Part shown: piece by piece, positions 6,316 through 53,111 of the stretch
How the letters are laid out: every line of letters starts with the position of its first letter
Numbering within the stretch: position 1 is the stretch's first letter
Origin: an uncultured Actinomycetota bacterium
GTDB lineage: Bacteria; Actinomycetota; Actinomycetes; Propionibacteriales; Nocardioidaceae
DNA length: 64,000 bases
NCBI GenBank assembly: GCA_963780275.1
Contig: CAWABE010000003.1
Coordinates: 124,958-188,957, forward strand
Direction of reading: 5' to 3'
Position numbers and translations under genes: made by a program
The notes under the pieces: generated by a model
The model's input: the letters and a program-made list of their open reading frames with translations, nothing else
Told to the model about the DNA's origin: nothing
Database searches by the model: none

Positions 6316-7212
6316 GTGAAGGTTCTCCTGATCGGGGCCAGCGGAGTCATGGGTCGTTCGACGATCCCGGCTCTCCACGACGCCGGCCACACGGTGCTCG
6401 GACTGGCCCGGTCCCCCAAAGCGGCCGCCGTGGTCGCTGGCTGTGGAGCCGAACCGGTTATGGCCGACCTCTTCGACGCCGGCGCGCTGGTGAGGGCGAT
6501 GCGCGGCTGCGACGCCGTCATCAACTTCGCCACACACGCGCCCGTCGGGTTCACCATCTTGGTTCCCGGCGCCTGGCGTGCCAACGACCGCATCCGGAGT
6601 CACGGGGTCGGCATCGTCGCCGCCGCCGCTCGGGAAGCCGGGATCGGCCGGCTCGTGCAGCAGAGCCTCAGCTTCGTCTACGCAGACCATGGGGACGACT
6701 GGATCGACGAGCACAGCGCCATCGAGCTCACCCGCGCGTCCGAGCACGTCGTCGTCGCCGAGGGCGAGGTCGACGACTTCACCCGCGCGGGTGGCGTCGG
6801 CGTCTCCCTCCGGTTCGGCCAGATCGCCGGTCAGGACCCCAACACCGCGTGGCTGCTCCGCCGGGCGCGGGCCGGTCGCCCGACCGGCATCGGCGAGCCC
6901 GACTCGTGGACGCACGTGGTGCACGCCGACGACGTCGGCACGGCCGCCGCCGCGGCTCTCACGGCGCCCGCGGGCGCCTACAACGTCGGTGCCGAACCGG
7001 TGAAGCGCGGCGACATGGCCGACACGTTCGCGCTCGCGATGGGGCGCGAGGATGGCCGGTTCTTCTCTCGCGCGATGATGCGGCTCGGGGGTCAGCGCAT
7101 CGAGATGGTCTCGCGATCGCAGCGCGTCAGCTCGCAGCGATTCTGCGACCGCACGGGCTGGCATCCGCAGTATCCCAAGCTGACCCCGGACTGGTTCGAC
7201 GATGTCGTCTGA
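6316..7212 (+). CDS. NAD-dependent epimerase/dehydratase family protein
   Basis: GASGVMG Rossmann motif; HVVHADDVG; AYNVG. Confidence 0.88.
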   Translation: MKVLLIGASGVMGRSTIPALHDAGHTVLGLARSPKAAAVVAGCGAEPVMADLFDAGALVRAMRGCDAVINFATHAPVGFTILVPGAWRANDRIRSHGVGIVAAAAREAGIGRLVQQSLSFVYADHGDDWIDEHSAIELTRASEHVVVAEGEVDDFTRAGGVGVSLRFGQIAGQDPNTAWLLRRARAGRPTGIGEPDSWTHVVHADDVGTAAAAALTAPAGAYNVGAEPVKRGDMADTFALAMGREDGRFFSRAMMRLGGQRIEMVSRSQRVSSQRFCDRTGWHPQYPKLTPDWFDDVV

Positions 7213-7390
7213 CGACCGTCCCGGTCCGGATGGGGCCGAGCGAAAGCGCCGCCGGCGCGCCGAACGGATGCTCGGGGACCTCCTGCCCGACACGACGGGC
7301 GACGAGACCGACGAGGGCTGGAGCGAGACGGACGGCGACTCGCGCGACGACGAGCTGCATCGCGATGTTCCGCCCCACCACGGCGGGTAG
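7202..7390 (+). CDS. Small conserved actinobacterial hypothetical protein (62 aa)
   Basis: GDLLPDTT.DE...W and C-terminal VPPHHGG, a pattern I recognise next to mscL in actinobacteria. Confidence 0.7.
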   Translation: MSSDDRPGPDGAERKRRRRAERMLGDLLPDTTGDETDEGWSETDGDSRDDELHRDVPPHHGG

Positions 7391-7395
7391 TCGTC

Positions 7396-7782
7396 TCAGA
7401 GCGGTCGACGCTTCAGCTCGTCACGGATCTCCCGCAGCAGCGCGATGTCCTCCGGCGCTGCCTCGGGCTCGTCGGCGGCACCCCGGCGCAACCCTTGCAG
7501 CTTCTGCACCGGCACCACGATGGCGACGTAGATGACGGCCATCGTCACGACGAAGACGATCACCGCGTTGATGAGAGCGCCGATGTTGACGAACGTCGCT
7601 TCATTGGTGATCTCGAAGCCGAAGCCCCGTGAACTGTCGCCGCCCGCGACGGCGACGATCGGGTTGACGAAGTAGGTGCCGAAGGCTCCGACCAGCGTCG
7701 TGAACGCGACGCCGATGGCGATGCCGACGGCGAGGTCGACGACGTTTCCCCGCATCAGAAAGTCCTTGAAACCCTTGATCAT
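7396..7782 (-). CDS. mscL: Large-conductance mechanosensitive channel
   Basis: MIKGFKDFLMRGNVVDLAVG...LLREIRDEL. Confidence 0.97.
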   Translation of the reverse strand: MIKGFKDFLMRGNVVDLAVGIAIGVAFTTLVGAFGTYFVNPIVAVAGGDSSRGFGFEITNEATFVNIGALINAVIVFVVTMAVIYVAIVVPVQKLQGLRRGAADEPEAAPEDIALLREIRDELKRRPL

Positions 7783-7832
7783 GGTGCCCCCAGGCAAGAC
7801 GACGCTGTGACCCGATCATGATGGCAGGGCGG

Positions 7833-8432
7833 CTACGACCGCGAGGTCAGCACGCTCAGCCGCGCGTCGAGTGCCCGCTCGGCCAGTCGGAGCGCGGCCT
7901 CCTCGGTGGTCGCCACGCCGACCGACACGCCTCCGGACGAGCCGTCGGGACGTGGCAGGGTGACGATCTCGGCGGCTCGCGCGACCACGGCGGTCTCGGA
8001 TCCGCCCTCCGGGTCGACGGCCACCACGTCGACCCGGTCGCCGACTCCCAGGCTCGACAGCGCGTCGGCATCAGCGAGACGGATGGTGGCCAGCACCGTG
8101 CCGTCGGGGAAGCCGCTCATGCGGTCGGCGCGGACGACGCGGCGATCCGTGACGACCTCGCCCCGGCGCATGGGCCCGGCGATGGTGCGTCCGACCACGT
8201 GGTCGACCCGATCGGTGCTCTCGGCCGGCACCGCCGGCTCGGGCAGCTGGACACGCCGGACGTCGTCGGCCGCGAGCACGGTGCCGCTGTCGAGGTCATG
8301 GGCGGCGACGACCACCCGGCGGCCCGGCGGCTCGGACCGGACAGCACCGAGGGCGAGCAGCACGGCGAGACCGGCGAACAGGGCGGCGAGCGGACGGCGG
8401 TGGCGCAGCAGCAGGCGCGAGATTCTCTCCAC
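7833..8432 (-). CDS. SAF-domain (CpaB-like) protein
   Basis: VVVAAHDLDSGTVLAADDV, GRTIAGPMRRGEVVT, GDRVDVV; sits beside mscL and FmdB as in other actinobacteria. Confidence 0.82.
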   Translation of the reverse strand: MERISRLLLRHRRPLAALFAGLAVLLALGAVRSEPPGRRVVVAAHDLDSGTVLAADDVRRVQLPEPAVPAESTDRVDHVVGRTIAGPMRRGEVVTDRRVVRADRMSGFPDGTVLATIRLADADALSSLGVGDRVDVVAVDPEGGSETAVVARAAEIVTLPRPDGSSGGVSVGVATTEEAALRLAERALDARLSVLTSRS

Positions 8433-8482
8433 GCCCGGAGGCTAGGACGGGAGGACGGATGCCCGCCCCGCTCGATCCACAG

Positions 8483-8884
8483 TCAGGAGAGCTGATGCTC
8501 CGCCAGCCAGGCCGCGGCGGCCCGTTTGCCGGCTCGTGCCAGCCACGCGTCGTAGATGGTCTCGGCCAGCTCGTCGCGGTCGAGCTCGCCGATCCGGCTG
8601 CCCCGCAGCAGCACGGAGGGATGCCCGGCGAAGTGCGGAGTCGTGAAGAACGGCGTCGACTCATCGAGCACGAGCGCCTGCTTCTCCTCCTCCGACGCGA
8701 CCCAGAAGACGATCACGTCGTCGTAGCGCTCGCCGGTGTCGGGGTCGACCGCGTCGGGTCGCGGTGTGCGGAAGAACACGAAGCTCCGACCGCTGACCTG
8801 GTAGACCCGCCCCTCCGCCGTGACCGCAGCTCCCGGCATGCCACGAGCGATCTCGTGGACGTCGTCGACGGTGGCGCGGGTCAT
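8483..8884 (-). CDS. MmcQ/YjbR family protein
   Basis: C-terminal part of the 770-aa track ORF, starting MTRATVDDV; FFTTPHFAGHPSVLLR, ELAETIYDAW. ATG overlaps the FmdB stop. Confidence 0.85.
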   Translation of the reverse strand: MTRATVDDVHEIARGMPGAAVTAEGRVYQVSGRSFVFFRTPRPDAVDPDTGERYDDVIVFWVASEEEKQALVLDESTPFFTTPHFAGHPSVLLRGSRIGELDRDELAETIYDAWLARAGKRAAAAWLAEHQLS

Positions 8885-9189
8885 CCGCCTGTCGGGGCCG
8901 GTGTGCTGGTCGTGGTCGGGCCGCTCGCGGAGGAGTCCGTCTTCGCGGGCTCGGCCTTCTTCGTGCCGTTGGTCGACGGCTCGCTCTTCGGGGCGTCCGA
9001 GGACGTCGACGAGGATCGGCTGTCGTTGCGGTAGAAACCGGAGCCCTTGAAGACGATGCCGACCGCGTTGAAGACCTTGCGGAGGCGTCCGGCGCACTCC
9101 GGGCACTCGGTCAGGGCGTCGTCGGAGAACGACTGGATGACCTCGAGTGCTGCACCGCATTGGGTGCACTGGTACTGGTACGTGGGCAC
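8881..9189 (-). CDS. FmdB family zinc-ribbon protein
   Basis: MPTYQYQCTQCG...CPECAGRLRKVF..VGIVFKGSGFYRND. Confidence 0.93.
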   Translation of the reverse strand: MPTYQYQCTQCGAALEVIQSFSDDALTECPECAGRLRKVFNAVGIVFKGSGFYRNDSRSSSTSSDAPKSEPSTNGTKKAEPAKTDSSASGPTTTSTPAPTGG

Positions 9190-9274
9190 GACGTTCTCCG
9201 CTCGTTCCGTAAGCCGCCCCCAAGGGTACAGTTGCGGTCATCGTGGCCGATCCCGTCCCTGCCGGACCAGTCTC

Positions 9275-10641
9275 ATGACCGAGTGGTTGCTGCTCGCGCT
9301 CTCCTTCTTCCTGATGCTCGCCTGCGGCGTCTTCGTGGCGGCCGAGTTCTCGTTCGTCACCGTCGACCGAGCCACGGTGGAGCGTGACGCGGAGGCCGGT
9401 GACCAGGGCGCCGCCGGCACCCTGAAGGCCCTGCGCTCGCTCTCCACCCAGCTCAGCGGTGCCCAGCTCGGGATCACGATCACCAACCTGGCCATCGGAT
9501 TCTTGGCGGAGCCTGCCTTGGGCACCCTGCTGCACGGGCCATTTGAGGATCTGGGGCTCGGTGAAGGAGGATCCAGGGCCGCGGCGTACGCCGTCGCCCT
9601 GGTCGTCAGCACCGTCGTGACCATGCTCGTCGGAGAGCTCATCCCCAAGAACATCGCTCTCGCGCTCCCGCAGGCCACGGCGTCGATCACTCAGCTGCCC
9701 CAGCGATGGTTCACGCGGGCGATGGCGTGGCCCATTCGCGCGCTCAACGGAACAGCCAACGCCATTCTGCGCTGGGTCGGCGTCGAGCCGCAGGAAGAGC
9801 TGCGCTCGGCCCGCTCGCCGATCGAGCTCCGGTCGCTCGTGCTGCGGTCGGCCCAGAAGGGCGCCATCGACGACGAGACGGCCGAGCTCGTCGCGCGCAG
9901 CATCGCCTTCGGTGATCGCACCGCTGCGGACGTGCGGACGCCTCGGGTGCACGTGCGATTCCTGGAGGGTCGGGACACCGCGCAGGACGTCATCGAGGCG
10001 GCTCGCGAGACCGGCCACTCGCGGTTCCCCGTCATCGGCCGGACCCCGGACGACGTGCTCGGCATCGTGCATGTCAAGCAGGCCGTGGGTGTCGAGCCTG
10101 AGCGCCGGCGCTCGGTCCGGCTGACCGAGATCACCGACCCCGCCACCACCGTCCCCGACAGCATCGAGCTCGACCCCCTTCTCACGCTGTTGCGTGACCA
10201 GGGCATGCAGATGGCGGTGGTCGTCGACGAGTACGGCGGCACCGATGGTGTGGTCACGCTGGAGGATCTGGTCGAGGAGATCGTGGGCGACATCGCCGAC
10301 GAGCACGACAAGCTGTCGACACTCAGCCGGCACCGCGGCGACGGTGCGTGGTCGCTGTCCGGTCTGCTCCGGCCCGACGAGGTCGCGGAGCAGACCGGCA
10401 TCGTGCTGCCGGAAAGTGAGGACTACGAGACCATCGCCGGCCTGATCAACGCCGATCTCGGCCGGCTCGCGACGCGTGGCGACTCCGTCACCCTCCGACT
10501 CGACCGGACCGGAGAAACCGACGAGAACGGTGCGCTGCCGCTCGTCGTGCACCTCGCCGTCGAGCACATGGATGGCCGACGCATCGACCGTGTGGTCATG
10601 ACGGTCGACGACCCGCCTGAGCGGAGGAGGAGGAGTCATGA
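9275..10641 (+). CDS. Hemolysin-family / CNNM (CorC/HlyC-like) CBS-domain transporter, with apparent 1-nt frameshift just before its stop
   Basis: FVAAEFS, QLGIT, GELIPKN, CBS pair, VVVDEYGGTDGVVTLEDLVEEIVG, CorC domain ending RIDRV. The frame misses the ATGA-overlap stop by one base (see findings). Confidence 0.88.
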
Positions 10642-22197: not shown

Positions 22198-22270
22198 GGG
22201 GCTATGGCGCAGTTGGTAGCGCGTCTCGTTCGCAATGAGAAGGTCGGGGGTTCGAATCCCCCTAGCTCCA
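22198..22270 (+). tRNA. tRNA-Ala (anticodon CGC), CCA not encoded
   Basis: GGGGCTATGGCGCAGTTGGTAGCGCGTCTCGTTCGCAATGAGAAGGTCGGGGGTTCGAATCCCCCTAGCTCCA; G3-U70 pair; loop TTCGCAA. Confidence 0.97.
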
Positions 22271-22348
22271 CCGCCCGTGCTCGGCCCCCTCCTCTGAGGA
22301 GCGCCGGCGCGGGTTCGCCATGTCGCCGAGGGGGCCGAGCGCGGGCGG
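22271..22348. repeat. 21-bp imperfect inverted repeat directly after tRNA-Ala
   Basis: CCGCCCGTGCTCGGCCCCCTC (22271-22291) versus GAGGGGGCCGAGCGCGGGCGG (22328-22348), one G-T wobble. Confidence 0.8.
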
Positions 22349-22385
22349 ACGGGCAGAGCGATTCGGGGAGGAGCCTGCGACGGAG

Positions 22386-22403
22386 TCCCCCTAGCTCCAC
22401 CGC
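22386..22403 (+). repeat. Exact 18-bp copy of the tRNA-Ala 3' end (att-like remnant 1)
   Basis: TCCCCCTAGCTCCACCGC at 22257-22274 and 22386-22403. Confidence 0.9.
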
Positions 22404-46855: not shown

Positions 46856-48196
46856 ATGGACGTCGACGAAGTCGTTGCGGCGGGGGCCACCCAGCAGGTC
46901 ACCGCGATGAGGTCGGGTGCCCTCAGCGCCCGCGAGCTCACGGTGGCCACCCTCGCCGCCGTCGAGCGCGAGAACGCCCGCTTGAACGCCGTGGTGGAGC
47001 TGCTGGCCGACGAGGCGTTCGACGCCGCCGCCGAGGCCGACCAGCGGCGCGCCGACGGCGACGACGGGCCGCTGCTCGGAGTGCCGATCGCCATCAAGAA
47101 CGACCTCGATCTCGCCGGGCATGTCACGGCGCTCGGCAGCCGCGCCGTCACGACTCCGGCGACGGCCGACGCCGAGCTCGTCGCTCGCATCCGGCGCGCC
47201 GGCATGGTTCCGGTGGCGACGACGACCCTGCCCGAGCTGGCGATCTACGGTTTCACCGAGTCCGAGGCCCATGGCATCACCCGCAACCCCCACCACCTCG
47301 ACCACTCCCCGGGAGGGTCGTCGGGCGGATCGGCGGCGCTGGTCGGTGCCGGGGCGGTCAGTGCTGCCACCGCCTCCGACGGCGCCGGCTCGGTCCGCAT
47401 CCCGGCCGCATCATGCGGGCTGGTCGGGTTCAAGCCGACGCATGGAACCATGCCCAGCTCGGGCGGCTGGCACGGTCTGTCGACCCAGAGCGGGCTCGCG
47501 CAGCGCGTCGCGGATGCCGCCCTGTTTCTGCAGACCGTGGGCACCTTCGACGAAAACCTCGTCGATGCGGCCACCACCGATCCGCCGCCCCTGCGGGTGG
47601 GCGTATCGACCAGCGCGTCTGCCGCGACCCGCGCGCTTCCGGTCGACTCCCGCGTCCGGTCGGCCATCGATGCGACGGCCTCGGCACTCGACCGTGCCGG
47701 CCATGAAGTGCGCGAAACGTCCATCCCGTTCCGGCTGGACGCCAGGATGCTCGCGGTTCGTTTCCTGACCGGAATCCGCGACCAGGCCGCGGACGTCGAC
47801 GACCCGTCCCTGCTCGAGAAGCGCACGCGCCAGATCGCCCGACTGGGACGTCCCTTCGGCCCGGGCTCGATTGCCCGGTCACGAGCAGCCGGTGAACGGT
47901 GGGGCGGTTCGGTGCACGACGATCTCGGTGTCGACGTCCTGCTGACGCCCGTGATGAGCGGCCCCGCCCTGCCGGTGGGGCGCTTCGACGGCCGTGGCGG
48001 CATCCGCACCGTGCTCGGGATGAACGCCTTCTATCCGTACACGGTGCAGTGGAACCATGCCGGGACGCCGGCGGTCTCGATACCGGTGGGCCGGACGGAC
48101 GACGGACTCCCGTTGGCCGTGCAGCTGATCGCCCGCCGTGGAGACGACGCCAGACTGATGTCGCTCGCCGGCTGGCTGGAGCGATCGTCAGCGTGA
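46856..48196 (+). CDS. Amidase signature family protein
   Basis: GVPIAIKND, PGGSSGGS, SDGAGSVRIPA..CGLVGFKP. Confidence 0.93.
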   Translation: MDVDEVVAAGATQQVTAMRSGALSARELTVATLAAVERENARLNAVVELLADEAFDAAAEADQRRADGDDGPLLGVPIAIKNDLDLAGHVTALGSRAVTTPATADAELVARIRRAGMVPVATTTLPELAIYGFTESEAHGITRNPHHLDHSPGGSSGGSAALVGAGAVSAATASDGAGSVRIPAASCGLVGFKPTHGTMPSSGGWHGLSTQSGLAQRVADAALFLQTVGTFDENLVDAATTDPPPLRVGVSTSASAATRALPVDSRVRSAIDATASALDRAGHEVRETSIPFRLDARMLAVRFLTGIRDQAADVDDPSLLEKRTRQIARLGRPFGPGSIARSRAAGERWGGSVHDDLGVDVLLTPVMSGPALPVGRFDGRGGIRTVLGMNAFYPYTVQWNHAGTPAVSIPVGRTDDGLPLAVQLIARRGDDARLMSLAGWLERSSA

Positions 48197-48981
48197 GCGG
48201 GTGGGACCCGGACCTCTACCTGCGTCACGCTGACGATCGAGGACGACCGTTCCTCGACCTGCTCGCCCGTGTCGATGTCACGCCCTACTCGATCGTCGAC
48301 CTCGGCTGTGGTCCCGGGCAGCTGACCCCGGTCCTGCAAGAGCGCTGGCCACACGCGATGATCCTCGGTGTCGACTCGTCCGCCGAGATGATCGGGGCGG
48401 CACATGGCCGGGATGACGGTCCGTCCGTCTCGTACGTCCAGGCCGATATCACCAGCTGGGAGCCAGCTGGTCCGGTCGACCTGATCGTCTCGAACGCCAC
48501 GTTCCAGTGGGTGCCGGACCAGCTGGAGGTCATCCGCCGGCTCGCCCGGCACGTCGCTCCCGGAGGCGCGTTCGCGCTCCAGGTGCCGAACAACGTCGGT
48601 GAACCGAGCCATGTCCTGCTCCGAGGCATGGCCTCCAGCGCTCCGTACGCGGAGTACACGACTGGTGTCCGCGAGCCACGGGGCACGGACCCGCAGGACT
48701 ACGTGGAGCTGTTCGCGGGGATGTCCGACGGCCTCGGCTGGAACGTCGACGTCTGGTCCACGACGTACCTGCACGTGCTCCAGGGCGAGGACCCGGTGTT
48801 CTCGTGGATCTCCGGCACCGGTGCGCGCCCGGTCCTGCAGACATTGCCGGACGATCTGCGCGACCAGTTCGTCGTGGAGTACAAGGCTGCGTTGCGTGAG
48901 GCGTACCCCGCCGAGCCCTGGGGGACCGTGTTCCCATTCACGCGCGTGTTCGCCGTCGCCGAGCTGCTGGACTGGCGATAG
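48193..48981 (+). CDS. tam: Trans-aconitate 2-methyltransferase
   Basis: WDPDLY..H...RGRPF.DLL, DLGCGPG, GVDSSAEMI, SNATFQWVP, FPFTRVFAVA; GTGA overlap with the amidase. Confidence 0.9.
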   Translation: MSGWDPDLYLRHADDRGRPFLDLLARVDVTPYSIVDLGCGPGQLTPVLQERWPHAMILGVDSSAEMIGAAHGRDDGPSVSYVQADITSWEPAGPVDLIVSNATFQWVPDQLEVIRRLARHVAPGGAFALQVPNNVGEPSHVLLRGMASSAPYAEYTTGVREPRGTDPQDYVELFAGMSDGLGWNVDVWSTTYLHVLQGEDPVFSWISGTGARPVLQTLPDDLRDQFVVEYKAALREAYPAEPWGTVFPFTRVFAVAELLDWR

Positions 48982-49030
48982 CCGCGGATCCGCAGAAGCG
49001 ACCGGTAGCCTGAGCGTGGTGAAAATGCAT

Positions 49031-49050
49031 TCCCCGGTTGGTCTGCCGGC
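49031..49050 (+). repeat. Exact upstream duplicate of the first 20 nt of the tRNA-Gln 5' half
   Basis: TCCCCGGTTGGTCTGCCGGC at 49031-49050 and 49096-49115; candidate -10 TAGCCT at 49006-49011. Confidence 0.92.
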
Positions 49051-49095
49051 CAAGAGGGTGCTGCCCCGCCTGGCGGGCCCACAATTTCATATCGA

Positions 49096-49141
49096 TCCCC
49101 GGTTGGTCTGCCGGCAGGGCCCGCCTGACTTTGAATCAGGC
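49096..49141 (+). tRNA. 5' half of an interrupted tRNA-Gln (anticodon TTG)
   Basis: Acceptor 5' strand TCCCCGG, D-arm-like GGTC...GGCA.GGCC, anticodon stem-loop (G)CCTGA-CTTTGAA-TCAGG(C). No T-arm follows; the sequence runs into a protein-coding fragment. Confidence 0.8.
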
Positions 49142-50573
49142 CGAGGCGCTACGGTGGCTGGCAGAGCTCTCCACGCCGCTTGGCCAGGGCATCGCGCTGT
49201 GCGACCGGGCGCTCGAGGATGCCGGCACAGACGCGGCCGTCGCCAGCCGGATCCACCGGACCAGAGGCGCGATTTCCTACTTCCTCGGCGACGTGCCCGC
49301 GGCCGAGCACCACGCCAGACTCGGCGTCGAACTCGCGGAACGTAGCGGCGACGACCAGGCGCTGGGCATGGCCATCGCCGAGCTGGCCCACTGGACCTAT
49401 TGCGGCGGCGGAGGTGTGCGCCGCGATCTCCTCGATCGCGCGGTCGCACTCGACGGCTCGGCCGGGGCATCCTCACCGCGCAGTCACCTGGCCAAGGTCG
49501 TCATGGACAACGACGGACATGACGAGGCCCGAGCGCTCCTCACGCTCCTGCTCGACCAGACCATGGAGACCGGCGATCTGTACTCGGCATCGACGCACGA
49601 GTTCCATCTGGCCGAGCTCGACGTGTGGGCCGGAGACTGGCCAGGCGCGATCGAGCACGCCGAGGAGAGCCTCCAGCTGCGACAGCACCTTGACCAACCG
49701 GGCGCTCCTCTGTACGTCGGCGCGATGGCGCGCGCGTGTCTCGGCGACGTCGACGAGGCCCGGAGCCTGGCTGAAACCGGGCTGGTGGAAGCGCGGCGCG
49801 CGGAGGACGTGGTCTTCTGCATGCAGAACCTGCATGTCCTCGGATTCGTCGAGCTGTCGCTCGGCAACTACGAAGCCGCCCAAGCCCTCCTGGGCGAGGC
49901 GACCGATCTGATGCGGTCGCGCTGGAACCGGGAGTTCGGCGACTGTCACGTGGTCCCGGACCAGATCGAGGCGCTCGTGGCACTCGGGGACCTGGCGCGG
50001 GCCGAGGACCTCTCGGAGTGGATGGACGAGGTCGCCCGAGCGACCCAGCGGCCCTGGACGACGGCCACCGGTGCGCGGTCCCAGGCATTGGTGCAGGCGG
50101 CCAGGAACGACCTCGACGGGGCAGACGCGGCCTTGGAGCGGGCGCTGGCGGCGCACGAGCGGCTGCCGATGCCCCTCGAGCTCGGGCGGACGCTCCTGAC
50201 GCGCGGCATCGTCCAACGCAGGATGAAACGTCGAGCGGTCGCCCGCGAGACCCTCGAGCAGGCCCTCGTGCTCTTCGAGGGTCGTGGCGCGACCTTGTGG
50301 GCCGAGCGGGCGCGCTCGGAGATCGCGCGCATCGGCGTGCGGTCAGCCGCGCAGGTCGACCTGACCCCGGTCGAGCAGCGGATCGCGGCTCTGGTCGCGC
50401 AGGGATACACCAATGGAGAGATCGCCGCGTCGCTTTCCTTGAGCAGAAAGACGGTCGAGGCGAACCTCTCGCGCTCCTACCGAAAGATGGGCGTCCGGTC
50501 CCGAGCACAGCTCGTAGCCAGGCTCTCGGAACCGCCTGAGCCCGCGGCCGCCCCCGGCACCAGCAATTCCTGA
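49140..50573 (+). pseudogene. N-terminally truncated large LuxR-family (TPR + HTH) regulator
   Basis: TPR-like helical repeats and C-terminal LuxR HTH (LTPVEQRIAALVAQGYTNGEIAASLSLSRKTVEANLSRSYRKMGVRSR). No ATPase domain or credible start; protein-like sequence begins at the tRNA junction (AEALRWLAEL). Confidence 0.75.
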
Positions 50574-50627
50574 CCACCGGGGGAGTTCCCCGATTACCGC
50601 GTCTCCTCGCCCGCCTACCTTCTTCAG

Positions 50628-50945
50628 ATGGAGTCCGCACTGCAGGAGAGCTTTCTGGTGGAGCGTTACTGGCCTGATGTCGGGCGTGCAGACGTCGCTA
50701 CGGCGGAGGAGCGCCTCTGCCGAGCCGCGGGGGCCCTCACGCTCGACGGGATCCCGATCCGGATCGTGAGCTCGACCTGGATCCCGGCCGATGAGGTCGT
50801 GCTGACGCTGTTCGAGGCGGGCGAGGAGGACGACGTACTCGAGGTCGGCCGGCGCAGCGGCTACCCGTTTGACCGCATACAGCGCGTCGAAGTTGTCACA
50901 GAAGCGAGCCGGAGGTGGCGTGGTGATGAAGAAGAGCATGTCTGA
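50628..50945 (+). CDS. Small protein resembling DUF4242 / SCO4226-like nickel-binding family
   Basis: FLVERYWP, STWIP.DE..L.LFEA, GYPFDRI; family call tentative. Confidence 0.6.
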   Translation: MESALQESFLVERYWPDVGRADVATAEERLCRAAGALTLDGIPIRIVSSTWIPADEVVLTLFEAGEEDDVLEVGRRSGYPFDRIQRVEVVTEASRRWRGDEEEHV

Positions 50946-52164
50946 GACGCAGCGAGTCGACGACGCGGACATCTGGGGGCTGCGACAGGCCATCCGCGGC
51001 CAGGTACTGGTGCCCGACGAGCCGGGGTACGACGAGGCACGGCGGGTGTGGAACGGGACCGTCGACCGGAGGCCGGCGCTGATCGCCCGGTGCGCCGACG
51101 CGACCGACGTGCAGCGAGCCCTGGGCTTCGCGGTGGAGCACGACCTCCCGGTCGCAGTGCGCGGCGGGGGCCACAGCGTCGCCGGCTTCTCCACCTGCGA
51201 CGACGGTGTGCTCATCGATCTCGGCCTGATGCGCACAGTGAGCGTCGACGCGGACGCACGGGTCGCACGGGCCGAGCCAGGGGCCACCGGGGCCGACTTC
51301 GACCGAGCGACCCAGAAGCATGGACTCGCCACAACGCTCGGGGTCGTGAGCACGACCGGGATCGCCGGGCTGACGCTGGGTGGTGGGATCGGGTGGCTGA
51401 TGCGCAAGCATGGGCTCGCCTGCGACAACCTGATCTCTGTCGATCTGGTCACCGCTGACGGCCGCCTCGTCACCGCCAGCTTGGACGAAAACCCGAACCT
51501 CTTCTGGGCCCTGAAGGGCGCGGGAGGCAACTTCGGCATCGTCACCTCGTTCGAGTACCGGCTGCATCCGGTCGGCCCGACGGTGTACGGCGGGAGCGTG
51601 GCATTCGCCTCCGAGCACCGGCGTGCCGTCCTGGAGTCCTACCGGGAGCTAACCGGGAAGGCTCCGGACGAGCTGACGACGTACGCGGCAATGACCGCGG
51701 CTCCGGACGGCTCGCCCGTGGCCGCGATCGCCGCCTGCTACGCGGGCGATCCGGCCGAGGGCGCACGCCTGCTCGACCCCATCAAGGCCGCAGTCGGCGA
51801 GCCGTTGCTCGATGCGCTGGGACCGCTGACCTACACCGAGCAGCAGAGCCGGATGGACGAGGGATACCCGCGCGGTGAGTACCACTACTGGCGCTCGTGC
51901 TTCCTCGACGCCCTCACCGACCAGGTCATCGACGTCTTGGTCGACCGGGCCAGCGACAGCCAGGCGCCGCCAACCCTCGAACTCATCGTGGAGCACATGG
52001 GTGGCGCGATCGCGGCGGGTGACGGATCCTTCGCGCATCGCGACGCGAACTACGACGTCCTCATCGCAGCCAACTGGACCGACTCCGCCGATCAGGACCG
52101 CTGCATCGCCTGGGCGCGCGACACCGCTGCGGCTACTCGAGCCGCACTCACGCGGCGGCACTAG
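50926..52164 (+). pseudogene. FAD-binding oxidoreductase (BBE/6-hydroxy-D-nicotine oxidase-like), C-terminally truncated
   Basis: RRVWNG, VRGGGHS, TGIAGLTLGGGIGWL, ALKGAGGNFGIVT. Ends after WARD without the Y.N / K..YDP.N.F BBE tail; TAG (52162-52164) lies inside the tRNA 3' half. Confidence 0.75.
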
Positions 52165-52193
52165 CGACGCAGGTTCGACTCCTGCCCGGGGAG
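52160..52193 (+). tRNA. 3' half of the interrupted tRNA-Gln
   Basis: T-arm GCAGG-TTCGACT-CCTGC (52169-52185), acceptor 3' strand CCGGGGA (52186-52192) exactly complementary to TCCCCGG, discriminator G. Confidence 0.82.
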
Positions 52194-52210
52194 CGAGAAC
52201 GTGTGTGCTT

Positions 52211-52230
52211 CGGCAGTTCAGGAACTGCCG
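52211..52230. terminator. 9-bp hairpin between the tRNA 3' half and the convergent hydrolase gene
   Basis: CGGCAGTTC-AG-GAACTGCCG. Confidence 0.55.
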
Positions 52231-53111
52231 TGCTGTGACGAGTCCAGTTCGGCTGCCGACCGGACCTCGTTGCCGGACGCCGACGCCTGGCGATCCAGCC
52301 AGCTTCGCATCAACCGTCCCGTCTGGTGTGGGTCGTCGAACATGGGGAAATGACCGACTCCCGACAGAACGTGAGACTCGGCGTGCGGGACGGCCTGGTG
52401 CCACAAGGGCTGCTCGTTGACCATCGGCGTGAATCGGTCCATTTCGCCCCAGGCCAACATGAACGGCACCGTCACTTCAGGTGTCGAATCGAGGCGAAAG
52501 GCCGAGAATCCCGGAAGCAAGTTGGCCCAGTCGCCTTTGGCGCTGTTCTTGCTGATCGCCATCGCCTGTCGAGCGGAGATCCGGTCGCCGTGCTCGAGCA
52601 CCGCGCGCAGCGCGATTCGCCTCATCTGCGGACGCGCGAGGACGACTGGTGCGAGCAGTCGACGGAGCCACGACAGATTGTTCAGTATTTCGAAATGCTT
52701 CACGAGACGCCGGGTTTGCTCCTGATTCGAGCCTCCAGCGGGGCAGATGGCGAGCGCGCTGCGCGCCCTTCCCTCTCTCGCGACGCCGAGCGCTGCAAGA
52801 CCTCCAAGCGAACAGCCAATGATGTGAGCGGACCGAAACCCTGCTCGGTCCATTTCCTCGGCGACACCGCGAGTCAGATCGTCCAGGGTGACTGGGCCGG
52901 TCAGCGGGTTGCCGCCGTCCCAGCCGGCCAGGGTCGGCGCAATGATCTCGAACCTGTCCAGGAGATGCGGAAGCAGGGGCTGCCACTTGCTCCACGGATT
53001 TGCGCCCATGTGAAGCAGGACCAGCGGTTCCCCTGAGCCGATGTGAAGCGTTCGTCGACCGCTGCTGGTGACCTCGACAAACCGCTTGAGACCTCCGGAC
53101 CGGGGTTTCAT
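52218..53111 (-). CDS. Alpha/beta fold hydrolase
   Basis: GSGEPLVLLH, GCSLGG nucleophile motif, AWGEMD, GVGHFPM; start uncertain; visibly more A/T-rich than neighbours. Confidence 0.8.
   Translation of the reverse strand: MKPRSGGLKRFVEVTSSGRRTLHIGSGEPLVLLHMGANPWSKWQPLLPHLLDRFEIIAPTLAGWDGGNPLTGPVTLDDLTRGVAEEMDRAGFRSAHIIGCSLGGLAALGVAREGRARSALAICPAGGSNQEQTRRLVKHFEILNNLSWLRRLLAPVVLARPQMRRIALRAVLEHGDRISARQAMAISKNSAKGDWANLLPGFSAFRLDSTPEVTVPFMLAWGEMDRFTPMVNEQPLWHQAVPHAESHVLSGVGHFPMFDDPHQTGRLMRSWLDRQASASGNEVRSAAELDSSQHGSS

Follow-up and report, generated by a model that had tools for sequence, protein, structure and literature searches.

The gene for tRNA-Gln(UUG) in an uncultured soil member of the Nocardioidaceae was found to be cut in two by a 3-kb stretch of protein-coding DNA. 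This arrangement probably (rough probability, 0.6) arose when a DNA fragment was captured at a break in a single illegitimate event of the end-joining type, which inactivated the tRNA gene. The locus lies within a window of 64,000 nt (GCA_963780275.1, contig CAWABE010000003.1, 124,958–188,957, forward strand), which is the whole stretch of DNA that was analysed and whose contig is part of a metagenome-assembled genome (MAG); coordinates given without a contig name refer to this window. The event is best filed as one of a known kind, namely an end-joining-type capture inactivating a tRNA gene, and is of modest interest as such. The two tRNA pieces and the insert between them are as follows.

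49096–49140, forward strand: 5' part of tRNA-Gln(UUG), comprising the acceptor 5' strand, the D-arm and the complete anticodon arm (canonical positions 1–43).
49141–52159, forward strand: inserted fragment of 3,019 bp (with the ambiguous GG at 49139–49140 included, 3,021 bp).
52160–52193, forward strand: 3' part of tRNA-Gln(UUG), comprising a 9-nt variable region, the T-arm, the acceptor 3' strand and G73.

The 5' part is 45 nt long (TCCCCGGTTGGTCTGCCGGCAGGGCCCGCCTGACTTTGAATCAGG) and its final bases, TCAGG, reach canonical position 43, while the 34-nt 3' part (ACTAGCGACGCAGGTTCGACTCCTGCCCGGGGAG) has the layout ACTAGCGAC-GCAGG-TTCGACT-CCTGC-CCGGGGA-G. A first-pass annotation of this stretch had placed the 3' part exactly here and had located the 5' part correctly with one base too many (49096–49141), C49141 belonging to the insert. 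The joined halves are identical at 79 of 79 positions to the intact gene of L089, a sister species (MAG MFD04212.bin.1.158) that is about 80–86% identical to the window, with the GCAGG/CCTGC T-stem included in the match; the 3' part and its GCGAG trailer are likewise the same in both. A tRNA was accepted on the basis of the Rfam covariance model RF00005 with its gathering score of 29 bits, and the intact L089 gene, equal to the joined halves, scored 40.1 bits. ARAGORN also called the in-silico joins as tRNA-Gln(ttg) across a wide range of join points, and the first-pass view that the two halves make up one tRNA was thus borne out. In situ, ARAGORN detected no tRNA-Gln in the window, and Rfam, applied to 48800–52500 at a permissive threshold (E up to 10), detected none either. 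Two other predictions were rejected as false positives that are both built on the orphan T-arm and a downstream hairpin: an ARAGORN tRNA-Ser(cga) of 97 nt (52141–52237) and a sub-threshold Rfam match to YrlA (Y RNA-like) in the region 52141–52249, with 22 bits versus 69. The hairpin itself (GGCAGTTCAGGAACTGCC, 52212–52229) lies downstream of the tRNA 3' part and overlaps the stop codon of a convergent hydrolase gene.

Relatives were found with a pattern of 36 nt from the tRNA 5' part, which matched at least 120 genomes from Nocardioides, Aeromicrobium, Marmoricola, Microlunatus, Propionibacteriaceae and Intrasporangiaceae. The 5' part shows 100% identity to at least 120 intact genes and to positions 6974–7018 of L001, a 177-kb metagenome contig from ENA that was reached via a 105-amino-acid (aa) protein encoded by the insert. 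Among the matches listed, every tRNA-Gln gene is intact with a corresponding 3' part, and these genes share the form ...TCAGG-A[CT]NAGCGAC-GNNGG-TTCGACT-CCNNC-CCGGGGA-G. Their T-stem variants are all paired (GTAGG/CCTAC, GCAGG/CCTGC, GATGG/CCATC, GAAGG/CCTTC and GGTGG/CCACC), as are their acceptor-stem variants. As the listed genes are intact and carry compensatory changes in both the T-stem and the acceptor stem, the split pieces are no chance resemblance to a tRNA. The 9-nt stretch 3' of the anticodon stem is also normal for the tRNA-Gln of this clade, since it is present in every listed match. One matching stretch was present in each of three complete chromosomes, and the matches listed suggest that tRNA-Gln(UUG) is a single-copy gene in the clade.

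The outer flanks of the two pieces are formed by the following genes.

48166–48981, forward strand: tam, encoding trans-aconitate 2-methyltransferase (NCBIfam PRK14103, E = 1e-84; start codon approximate), the left ancestral flank.
52218–53111, reverse strand: alpha/beta-fold hydrolase gene (Pfam Abhydrolase_6 and Abhydrolase_1; start codon uncertain), the right ancestral flank.

An empty allele, in which tam, an intact tRNA-Gln and the hydrolase gene are contiguous, was identified both in L089 and in a second relative, L122, whose hydrolase is 89% identical to that of the window at the protein level. The hydrolase gene, convergent with the tRNA, directly adjoins the intact tRNA in both, and tam is syntenic in L001, L089 and L122. 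The window without 49141–52159 is colinear with L089 in an alignment. Given this contiguity and colinearity, the tRNA pieces and outer flanks of the window represent the ancestral locus. The tRNA-Gln occupies a conserved core position, with metG-rpfB-ksgA-ispE on one side and glmU-prs on the other, and, as had been stated at first pass, the stretch from tam to glmU in which the locus lies holds no intact copy of the tRNA.

Compared with L089, the insertion point is exactly 43|44 in canonical numbering, and the target has neither lost nor duplicated a base. When L001 is taken as donor, tRNA and donor share 2 nt (GG) at the left junction (tRNA ...CAGG, donor ...CGGG|CCGAGG) and the right junction has 0 nt of microhomology. 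The first-pass annotation had suggested a 3-nt GGC microhomology; the intact gene, however, reads TCAGG|ACTAG without the C, and for this reason the GGC repeat is not a target duplication. Its wider proposal, a clean insertion that split a once-intact tRNA-Gln(UUG) without duplicating any of it and for which a contiguous version was to be sought in relatives, is confirmed by the empty alleles of L089 and L122, with the crossover at 43|44.

The insert contains three genes, of which only the middle one is complete.

49141–50573, forward strand: LuxR/MalT-type (LAL) regulator gene, 5'-truncated, with residues 442–920 left (TPR region and GerE helix-turn-helix).
50628–50945, forward strand: small open reading frame (ORF) of 105 aa, intact, weakly SCO4226-like (Pfam PF14026, E = 1.2e-4, below the family cut-off).
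50926–52164, forward strand: FAD-linked oxidase gene, 3'-truncated, with residues 1–402 matching and its stop codon TAG (52162–52164) within the tRNA 3' piece.

The insert is 99.67% identical to positions 8512–11531 of L001 (10 differences in 3,021) and shows 88% nucleotide identity to four further contigs, L127–L130. In L001 the gene order is tam, an intact tRNA-Gln(ttg), a 130-bp spacer, a 920-aa regulator, the 105-aa ORF and a 458-aa oxidase, after which the contig ends. When the 920-aa regulator of L001 was compared with the window by tblastn, residues 442–920 were covered and residues 1–441 were missing. The remnant has a GerE match and a TPR_MalT match beginning at profile position 82, and it lacks the AAA_16 ATPase part that is present in the full genes of L001 and L127–L129. 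The 105-aa protein is encoded identically in L001. The oxidase product has 412 aa in the window (P0110) versus 458 aa at full length in L001 (P0212). Its only Pfam match is FAD_binding_4, the BBE domain being missing; it spans positions 10–377 of 453 in the nearest NCBIfam model, BagK/FevA1, and an extra G near 52131–52133 leads to a frameshift.

Two parts of the L001 arrangement are missing beside the insert, namely 7019–8511, which holds the tRNA 3' half and the first 441 regulator codons, and 11532 onward, which holds the last 48 oxidase codons and the stop. Neither was found anywhere in the 64-kb window, and a rearrangement within the window was ruled out since both are absent from it. The full trio of regulator, protein of about 104 aa and oxidase with BBE domain was also identified in L127 (6886–11374), L128 (3277–7765) and L129 (6173–10661). 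The L130 contig starts within the regulator gene, inside the stretch equivalent to the insert, and only the rest of the module is visible there (9–2805). These four contigs represent three unrelated neighbourhoods with no tRNA nearby. Homology crosses both insert breakpoints in L001 and L127–L129, and the right breakpoint alone in L130; because this homology to intact genes continues across its breakpoints, the insert is an internal fragment without ends of its own. The trio is a conserved module, found in at least four neighbourhoods when that of L001 is counted, and it looks like an accessory cassette travelling with mobile or defence regions. The neighbours of the module in L130 are genes for Kiwa (KwaA), AbiE, type I restriction-modification, RadC and a TrwC relaxase.

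Eight of the ten differences between the insert and L001, including the extra G, lie within the last 330 nt (51829–52159), the first 2.7 kb being 99.9% identical. This clustering at the insert end, together with the extra G in the oxidase gene, suggests that the insert is decaying. The cluster could reflect pseudogene decay, or it could mark a recombination boundary or a different donor for that end.

No feature of a mobile element was detected. Profile searches revealed no integrase, transposase or recombinase among the three ORFs of the insert, and a scan of nine ORFs outside it, located downstream to 64 kb and upstream at 38–41.6 kb, gave no recombinase. There is no att duplication in the window, which has a single tRNA 3' part and halves without overlap, and no pair of terminal inverted repeats links the two insert ends. 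Comparison with L089 and L001 showed no target-site duplication, and no repeat usable for precise excision of the insert was found. A transposon or insertion sequence was ruled out, as the insert has no transposase, terminal repeats or target duplication, and a canonical tyrosine-integrase island was ruled out for this allele, which has no integrase, att repeat or regenerated tRNA. The first-pass annotation had likewise found no integrase in the insert, whose sole genes are the regulator fragment, the 105-aa protein and the oxidase fragment, and had set the arrangement apart from canonical integrase islands; both statements hold. Its suggestion of an excisable element does not, as the insert has neither ends of its own nor a repeat for precise excision.

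The clean insertion, the 0–2 nt of junction homology and the genes cut at both ends together point to illegitimate repair of a break with capture of a fragment. The 2- and 0-nt overlaps, the lack of target duplication and a non-mobile fragment of a module that is intact elsewhere are all as expected of end-joining capture. Starting from an ancestral state of tam, intact tRNA-Gln(UUG) and hydrolase, a double-strand break would have arisen in the tRNA gene between canonical positions 43 and 44. It would then have been sealed by illegitimate end joining, through Ku/LigD-dependent non-homologous end joining (NHEJ) or a similar route, with a loose 3-kb fragment patched in. The source of this fragment may have been a conspecific accessory module, which in L001 adjoins its own tRNA-Gln, 130 bp downstream. 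This would leave the tRNA gene dead, the regulator deprived of its ATPase half, the oxidase of its C-terminus and the small ORF intact, and the insert would be unable to move, excise or splice. A break followed by end joining is the mechanism that we infer for this locus. It would make a coherent, though conjectural, history if an island carrying the module had been lost or excised and part of it had then been patched into the tRNA break.

Capture of this kind has been described in other bacteria. When I-SceI breaks were repaired by NHEJ in Streptomyces ambofaciens, pieces of endogenous DNA between 30 bp and 18.8 kb long were inserted, on two occasions from the vicinity of the break (PMC5869714), and in Sinorhizobium meliloti a linear cassette was captured at a chromosomal break in a Ku- and LigD-dependent manner (PMC6379672). 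The present locus resembles these cases in that non-mobile DNA was inserted at a putative break with little or no junction homology. It differs in that those captures were nuclease-induced, made in the laboratory and usually accompanied by end trimming, whereas this one is natural and no target base was lost.

A number of points weigh against end-joining capture or against the junctions themselves. The two broken tRNA ends are complete to the last nucleotide, whereas many NHEJ scars are less clean, and neither Ku nor LigD was found among the scanned ORFs of the 64-kb window. The fragment comes from a module that neighbours the same tRNA in L001, a coincidence which random capture leaves unexplained. 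The window has 34 CAA versus 406 CAG among its 440 glutamine codons, with CAA present in 21 of the 41 long ORFs, in agreement with the earlier statement that CAA codons are in use. Since CAA is common, the gene is apparently single copy in the clade and its loss would be lethal, a second copy of tRNA-Gln(UUG) has to be assumed. Unless the allele is confined to a minority of cells or to the assembly, the strain must carry a further tRNA-Gln(UUG) gene beyond the 64-kb window, and such a gene is presumed here. The junctions also lack outside support: ten public metagenome runs compared with the locus contained no junction-spanning contig, words from the left junction were found in 0 indexed runs, and a search with the right junction returned a generic tRNA word alone. 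One 625-kb contig is the only recorded source of the truncated oxidase product, whose reading frame spans the right junction.

An assembly or consensus artefact is accordingly the first alternative to be weighed. An empty-site strain and an L001-like strain may have been mixed, with the assembler or a chimeric read making a path that does not exist. Neither junction is backed by an independent read, contig or protein record, and both parental arrangements are found in soil metagenomes, several of the ten runs carrying the L001-like arrangement or intact tRNAs. The depth of the strain is low in the short-read runs that contain it: runs X25, X3 and X9 hold 100%-identical pieces of it at 3–10x, none of which reaches a junction. 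JGI metagenomes gave 0 matches to the left junction and also 0 matches to the end of the L001 oxidase gene, and an exact-protein look-up of the hydrolase returned no other contig. The loss of a core tRNA is in addition biologically awkward. Against an artefact, two new junctions would have to rebuild the tRNA without a single error (45 + 34 nt, 79/79), and the 0–2 nt shared at the junctions is far too short for misassembly. Random chimeras would not split two pieces that are exactly neighbouring in the genome. The insert has its own private differences from L001 (10 in 3,021), and the flanks are otherwise clean, with one indel, which is intergenic, within 6.9 kb relative to L001. As two junctions with 0–2 nt of overlap restore a 79-nt gene exactly and the flanks are clean, an artefact was judged unlikely.

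If the junctions hold, the locus is a natural, base-resolved case of fragment capture in an environmental actinobacterium for which both the empty site and a donor-like module have been identified, end-joining capture of fragments in bacteria having been demonstrated so far solely after engineered breaks. As assembled, a core and apparently single-copy tRNA for CAA is destroyed, which implies that the cell has a second gene, that the population is polymorphic or that the assembly is wrong. The locus should be annotated as a tRNA pseudogene and two truncated genes, rather than as an intron, an island or a split tRNA.

It is as improbable as an assembly artefact that the insert is what remains of a decayed integrase island at tRNA-Gln, bounded by attL and attR, of which deletions or aberrant att recombination left the 3-kb middle; in a variant of this explanation, the island was excised, a failed re-integration broke attB and the break was patched with a remnant of the island. 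The tRNA is indeed a used att site. A second same-strand match to the tRNA-Gln 3' part lies 0.15–5.7 kb downstream in L020, L035, L053, L066, L071, L102 and L116. The downstream copy begins at CTTTGAATCAGG in the anticodon loop (about position 32) in L053, L102 and L116, and within or beside the anticodon arm in L020, L035 and L071; the copy in L066 is a weak match. The duplicated block in the six convincing relatives is about 45–48 nt long. Such downstream copies are the attL/attR signature of integrated or decayed islands, and tRNA-Gln is on this basis a recurrent integration site in the clade. In L001 the module follows directly after tRNA-Gln, and the tRNA 3' half differs from that of the window at 4 of about 36 positions (including a compensatory T-stem pair, and CCA versus CGA), like an attL/attB pair. 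The position of the L130 module beside a TrwC relaxase and defence genes fits the same picture, and an island would account for the fragment coming from the tRNA's own neighbour. However, neither an integrase nor an att duplication is present here, and the att copies of the relatives begin at about position 32, in the anticodon loop, rather than at 43|44. Two independent deletions that both stopped at 43|44 are very unlikely, and the leader 5' of the tRNA in L001 differs as well, which integration at the 3' end leaves unexplained. The likeness to tyrosine-integrase islands in tRNA 3' parts is that the target tRNA serves as an att site in relatives and that the accessory genes occur in varied contexts; unlike them, the present allele has no integrase, att repeat or rebuilt tRNA, its break is at 43|44 and it has truncated genes at both ends.

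Microhomology-mediated break-induced replication is a weaker and distinctly improbable alternative. A fork would have collapsed in the heavily transcribed tRNA gene, 3 kb would have been copied from a sister or incoming L001-like template and synthesis would have switched back. The 2-nt microhomology at the left junction would fit this, as would the position of the copied segment in the L001 arrangement, 1.5 kb from the tRNA and in identical orientation. It is made weaker by the right junction, which has no microhomology; the return switch would also need to hit the exact next base of the tRNA, and the template module is not found elsewhere in the 64-kb window.

A split or interrupted tRNA that still functions, its halves being transcribed and joined at the RNA level or the insert excising precisely, is very unlikely even though the break is at the start of the variable region, where tRNAs tolerate extra sequence, the upstream promoter units are intact and the gene is apparently the clade's only tRNA-Gln(UUG) among the matches listed while CAA is used, for the insert consists of ordinary truncated genes that continue in relatives, has no repeats for excision, gave no Rfam match to a group I or group II intron in 48800–52500 (E up to 10) and has flanks that pair no better than shuffled sequence. 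The pairing was assessed with the 60 nt 3' of the 5' half and the 60 nt 5' of the 3' half, which gave –49.0 kcal/mol versus –48.5 ± 5.4 for 500 shuffles, 223 of these being as good or better. The joining at the RNA level considered at first pass thus finds neither an intron family nor a flank duplex in its favour. That the halves, transcribed either together in one long precursor or apart, from tandem promoter units that are still intact, are trimmed and then act as a nicked two-piece tRNA or act after RtcB-type ligation is scarcely to be expected; were it true, bacteria would have their first functional split tRNA, seen shortly after a DNA insertion gave rise to it.

Introns of bacterial tRNA genes (group I and group II) are located in the anticodon loop and fold as ribozymes. 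The tRNA-Gln locus shares with them an intervening sequence inside the gene, and differs in its position at 43|44, in the lack of a covariance-model match and in the truncated protein-coding genes inside it; an intron was ruled out, as no intron model matched in 48800–52500. The split or disrupted tRNAs of archaea such as Nanoarchaeum and Caldivirga have complementary flanks that form a bulge-helix-bulge for the splicing endonuclease and yield a working tRNA. Separate 5' and 3' tRNA pieces are found here as well; unlike the archaeal genes, however, these are in a bacterium, have flanks without complementarity and carry no recombinase-bearing element, and archaeal-type split tRNA pairing was ruled out since the flanks pair like shuffled sequence. 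The archaeal splicing endonuclease is not known from bacteria. In the case of the Caldiarchaeum tRNA-Thr, population heterogeneity has been used to argue that integration and recombination of DNA disrupt tRNA genes (PMC3293823).

With end-joining capture retained as the preferred explanation, several observations on the surroundings of the tRNA remain to be described. L001 is about 99.6% identical to the window outside the tRNA locus, and 40 of the 65 flank differences sit in the last kilobase of tam (48070–49013 in the window, 6000–6942 in L001), where divergence is about 4% versus about 0.4% farther away. The distribution of these differences indicates that the end of tam is a recombination tract from a more distant lineage which ends at the tRNA locus. 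As the tRNA 3' half of L001 and the end of tam have both diverged, the locus appears to be a recombination hotspot at which module-bearing and module-free alleles are exchanged. The leaders directly 5' of the tRNA are also unrelated, with 17 nt in the window and 31 nt in L001.

Upstream of the tRNA 5' part, an additional element was identified.

49031–49095, forward strand: extra leader unit of 65 nt, with a copy of tRNA nt 1–20 (49031–49050), a spacer, the palindrome CCCGCCTGGCGGG (49065–49077) and a –10-like box.

The unit begins with an exact direct repeat of the first 20 nt of the tRNA. Between one and four such extra tandem units, with a period of 58–65 nt, were found 5' of tRNA-Gln(UUG) in 15 of 112 relatives as well as in the window, for example in L032 (4716–4967), L043 (3431–3682), L119 (7641–7831), L034 and L054. 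In each of them, roughly 20 nt from the start of the tRNA are followed by a spacer, the palindrome CCCGCC(A/T)GGCGGG and a –10-like box. The units are near-identical within one genome, and a single unit folds as a long hairpin (–25 to –27 kcal/mol). L021 differs in having, instead of partial units, a further complete copy of the tRNA at a distance of 155 nt, and the unit is absent in L001 despite its identity of about 99.6% to the window. Promoter amplification, a leader RNA and a scar of repeated rearrangement are possible explanations of these units. As a possible side effect of the insertion, the half of the regulator that holds the TPR and helix-turn-helix regions now stands directly behind the tRNA promoter units.

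The first-pass annotation had implied an integrase island at tRNA-Ala in the same window, and only a short remnant was found there. An 18-nt copy (TCCCCCTAGCTCCACCGC) of the 3' end of tRNA-Ala(cgc) (22198–22272) is present at 22384–22401, 130 nt downstream. There is no adjacent integrase beyond this remnant, and the next ORF gave a weak FAD-oxidoreductase match.

In the left flank of the tRNA-Gln locus, the amidase gene (46856–48196) and tam (about 48166–48981) are two overlapping genes both in the window and in L001. In L122 the amidase and tam were called as a single product of 709 aa (7316–9445), which may be either a real fusion or an effect of gene calling.

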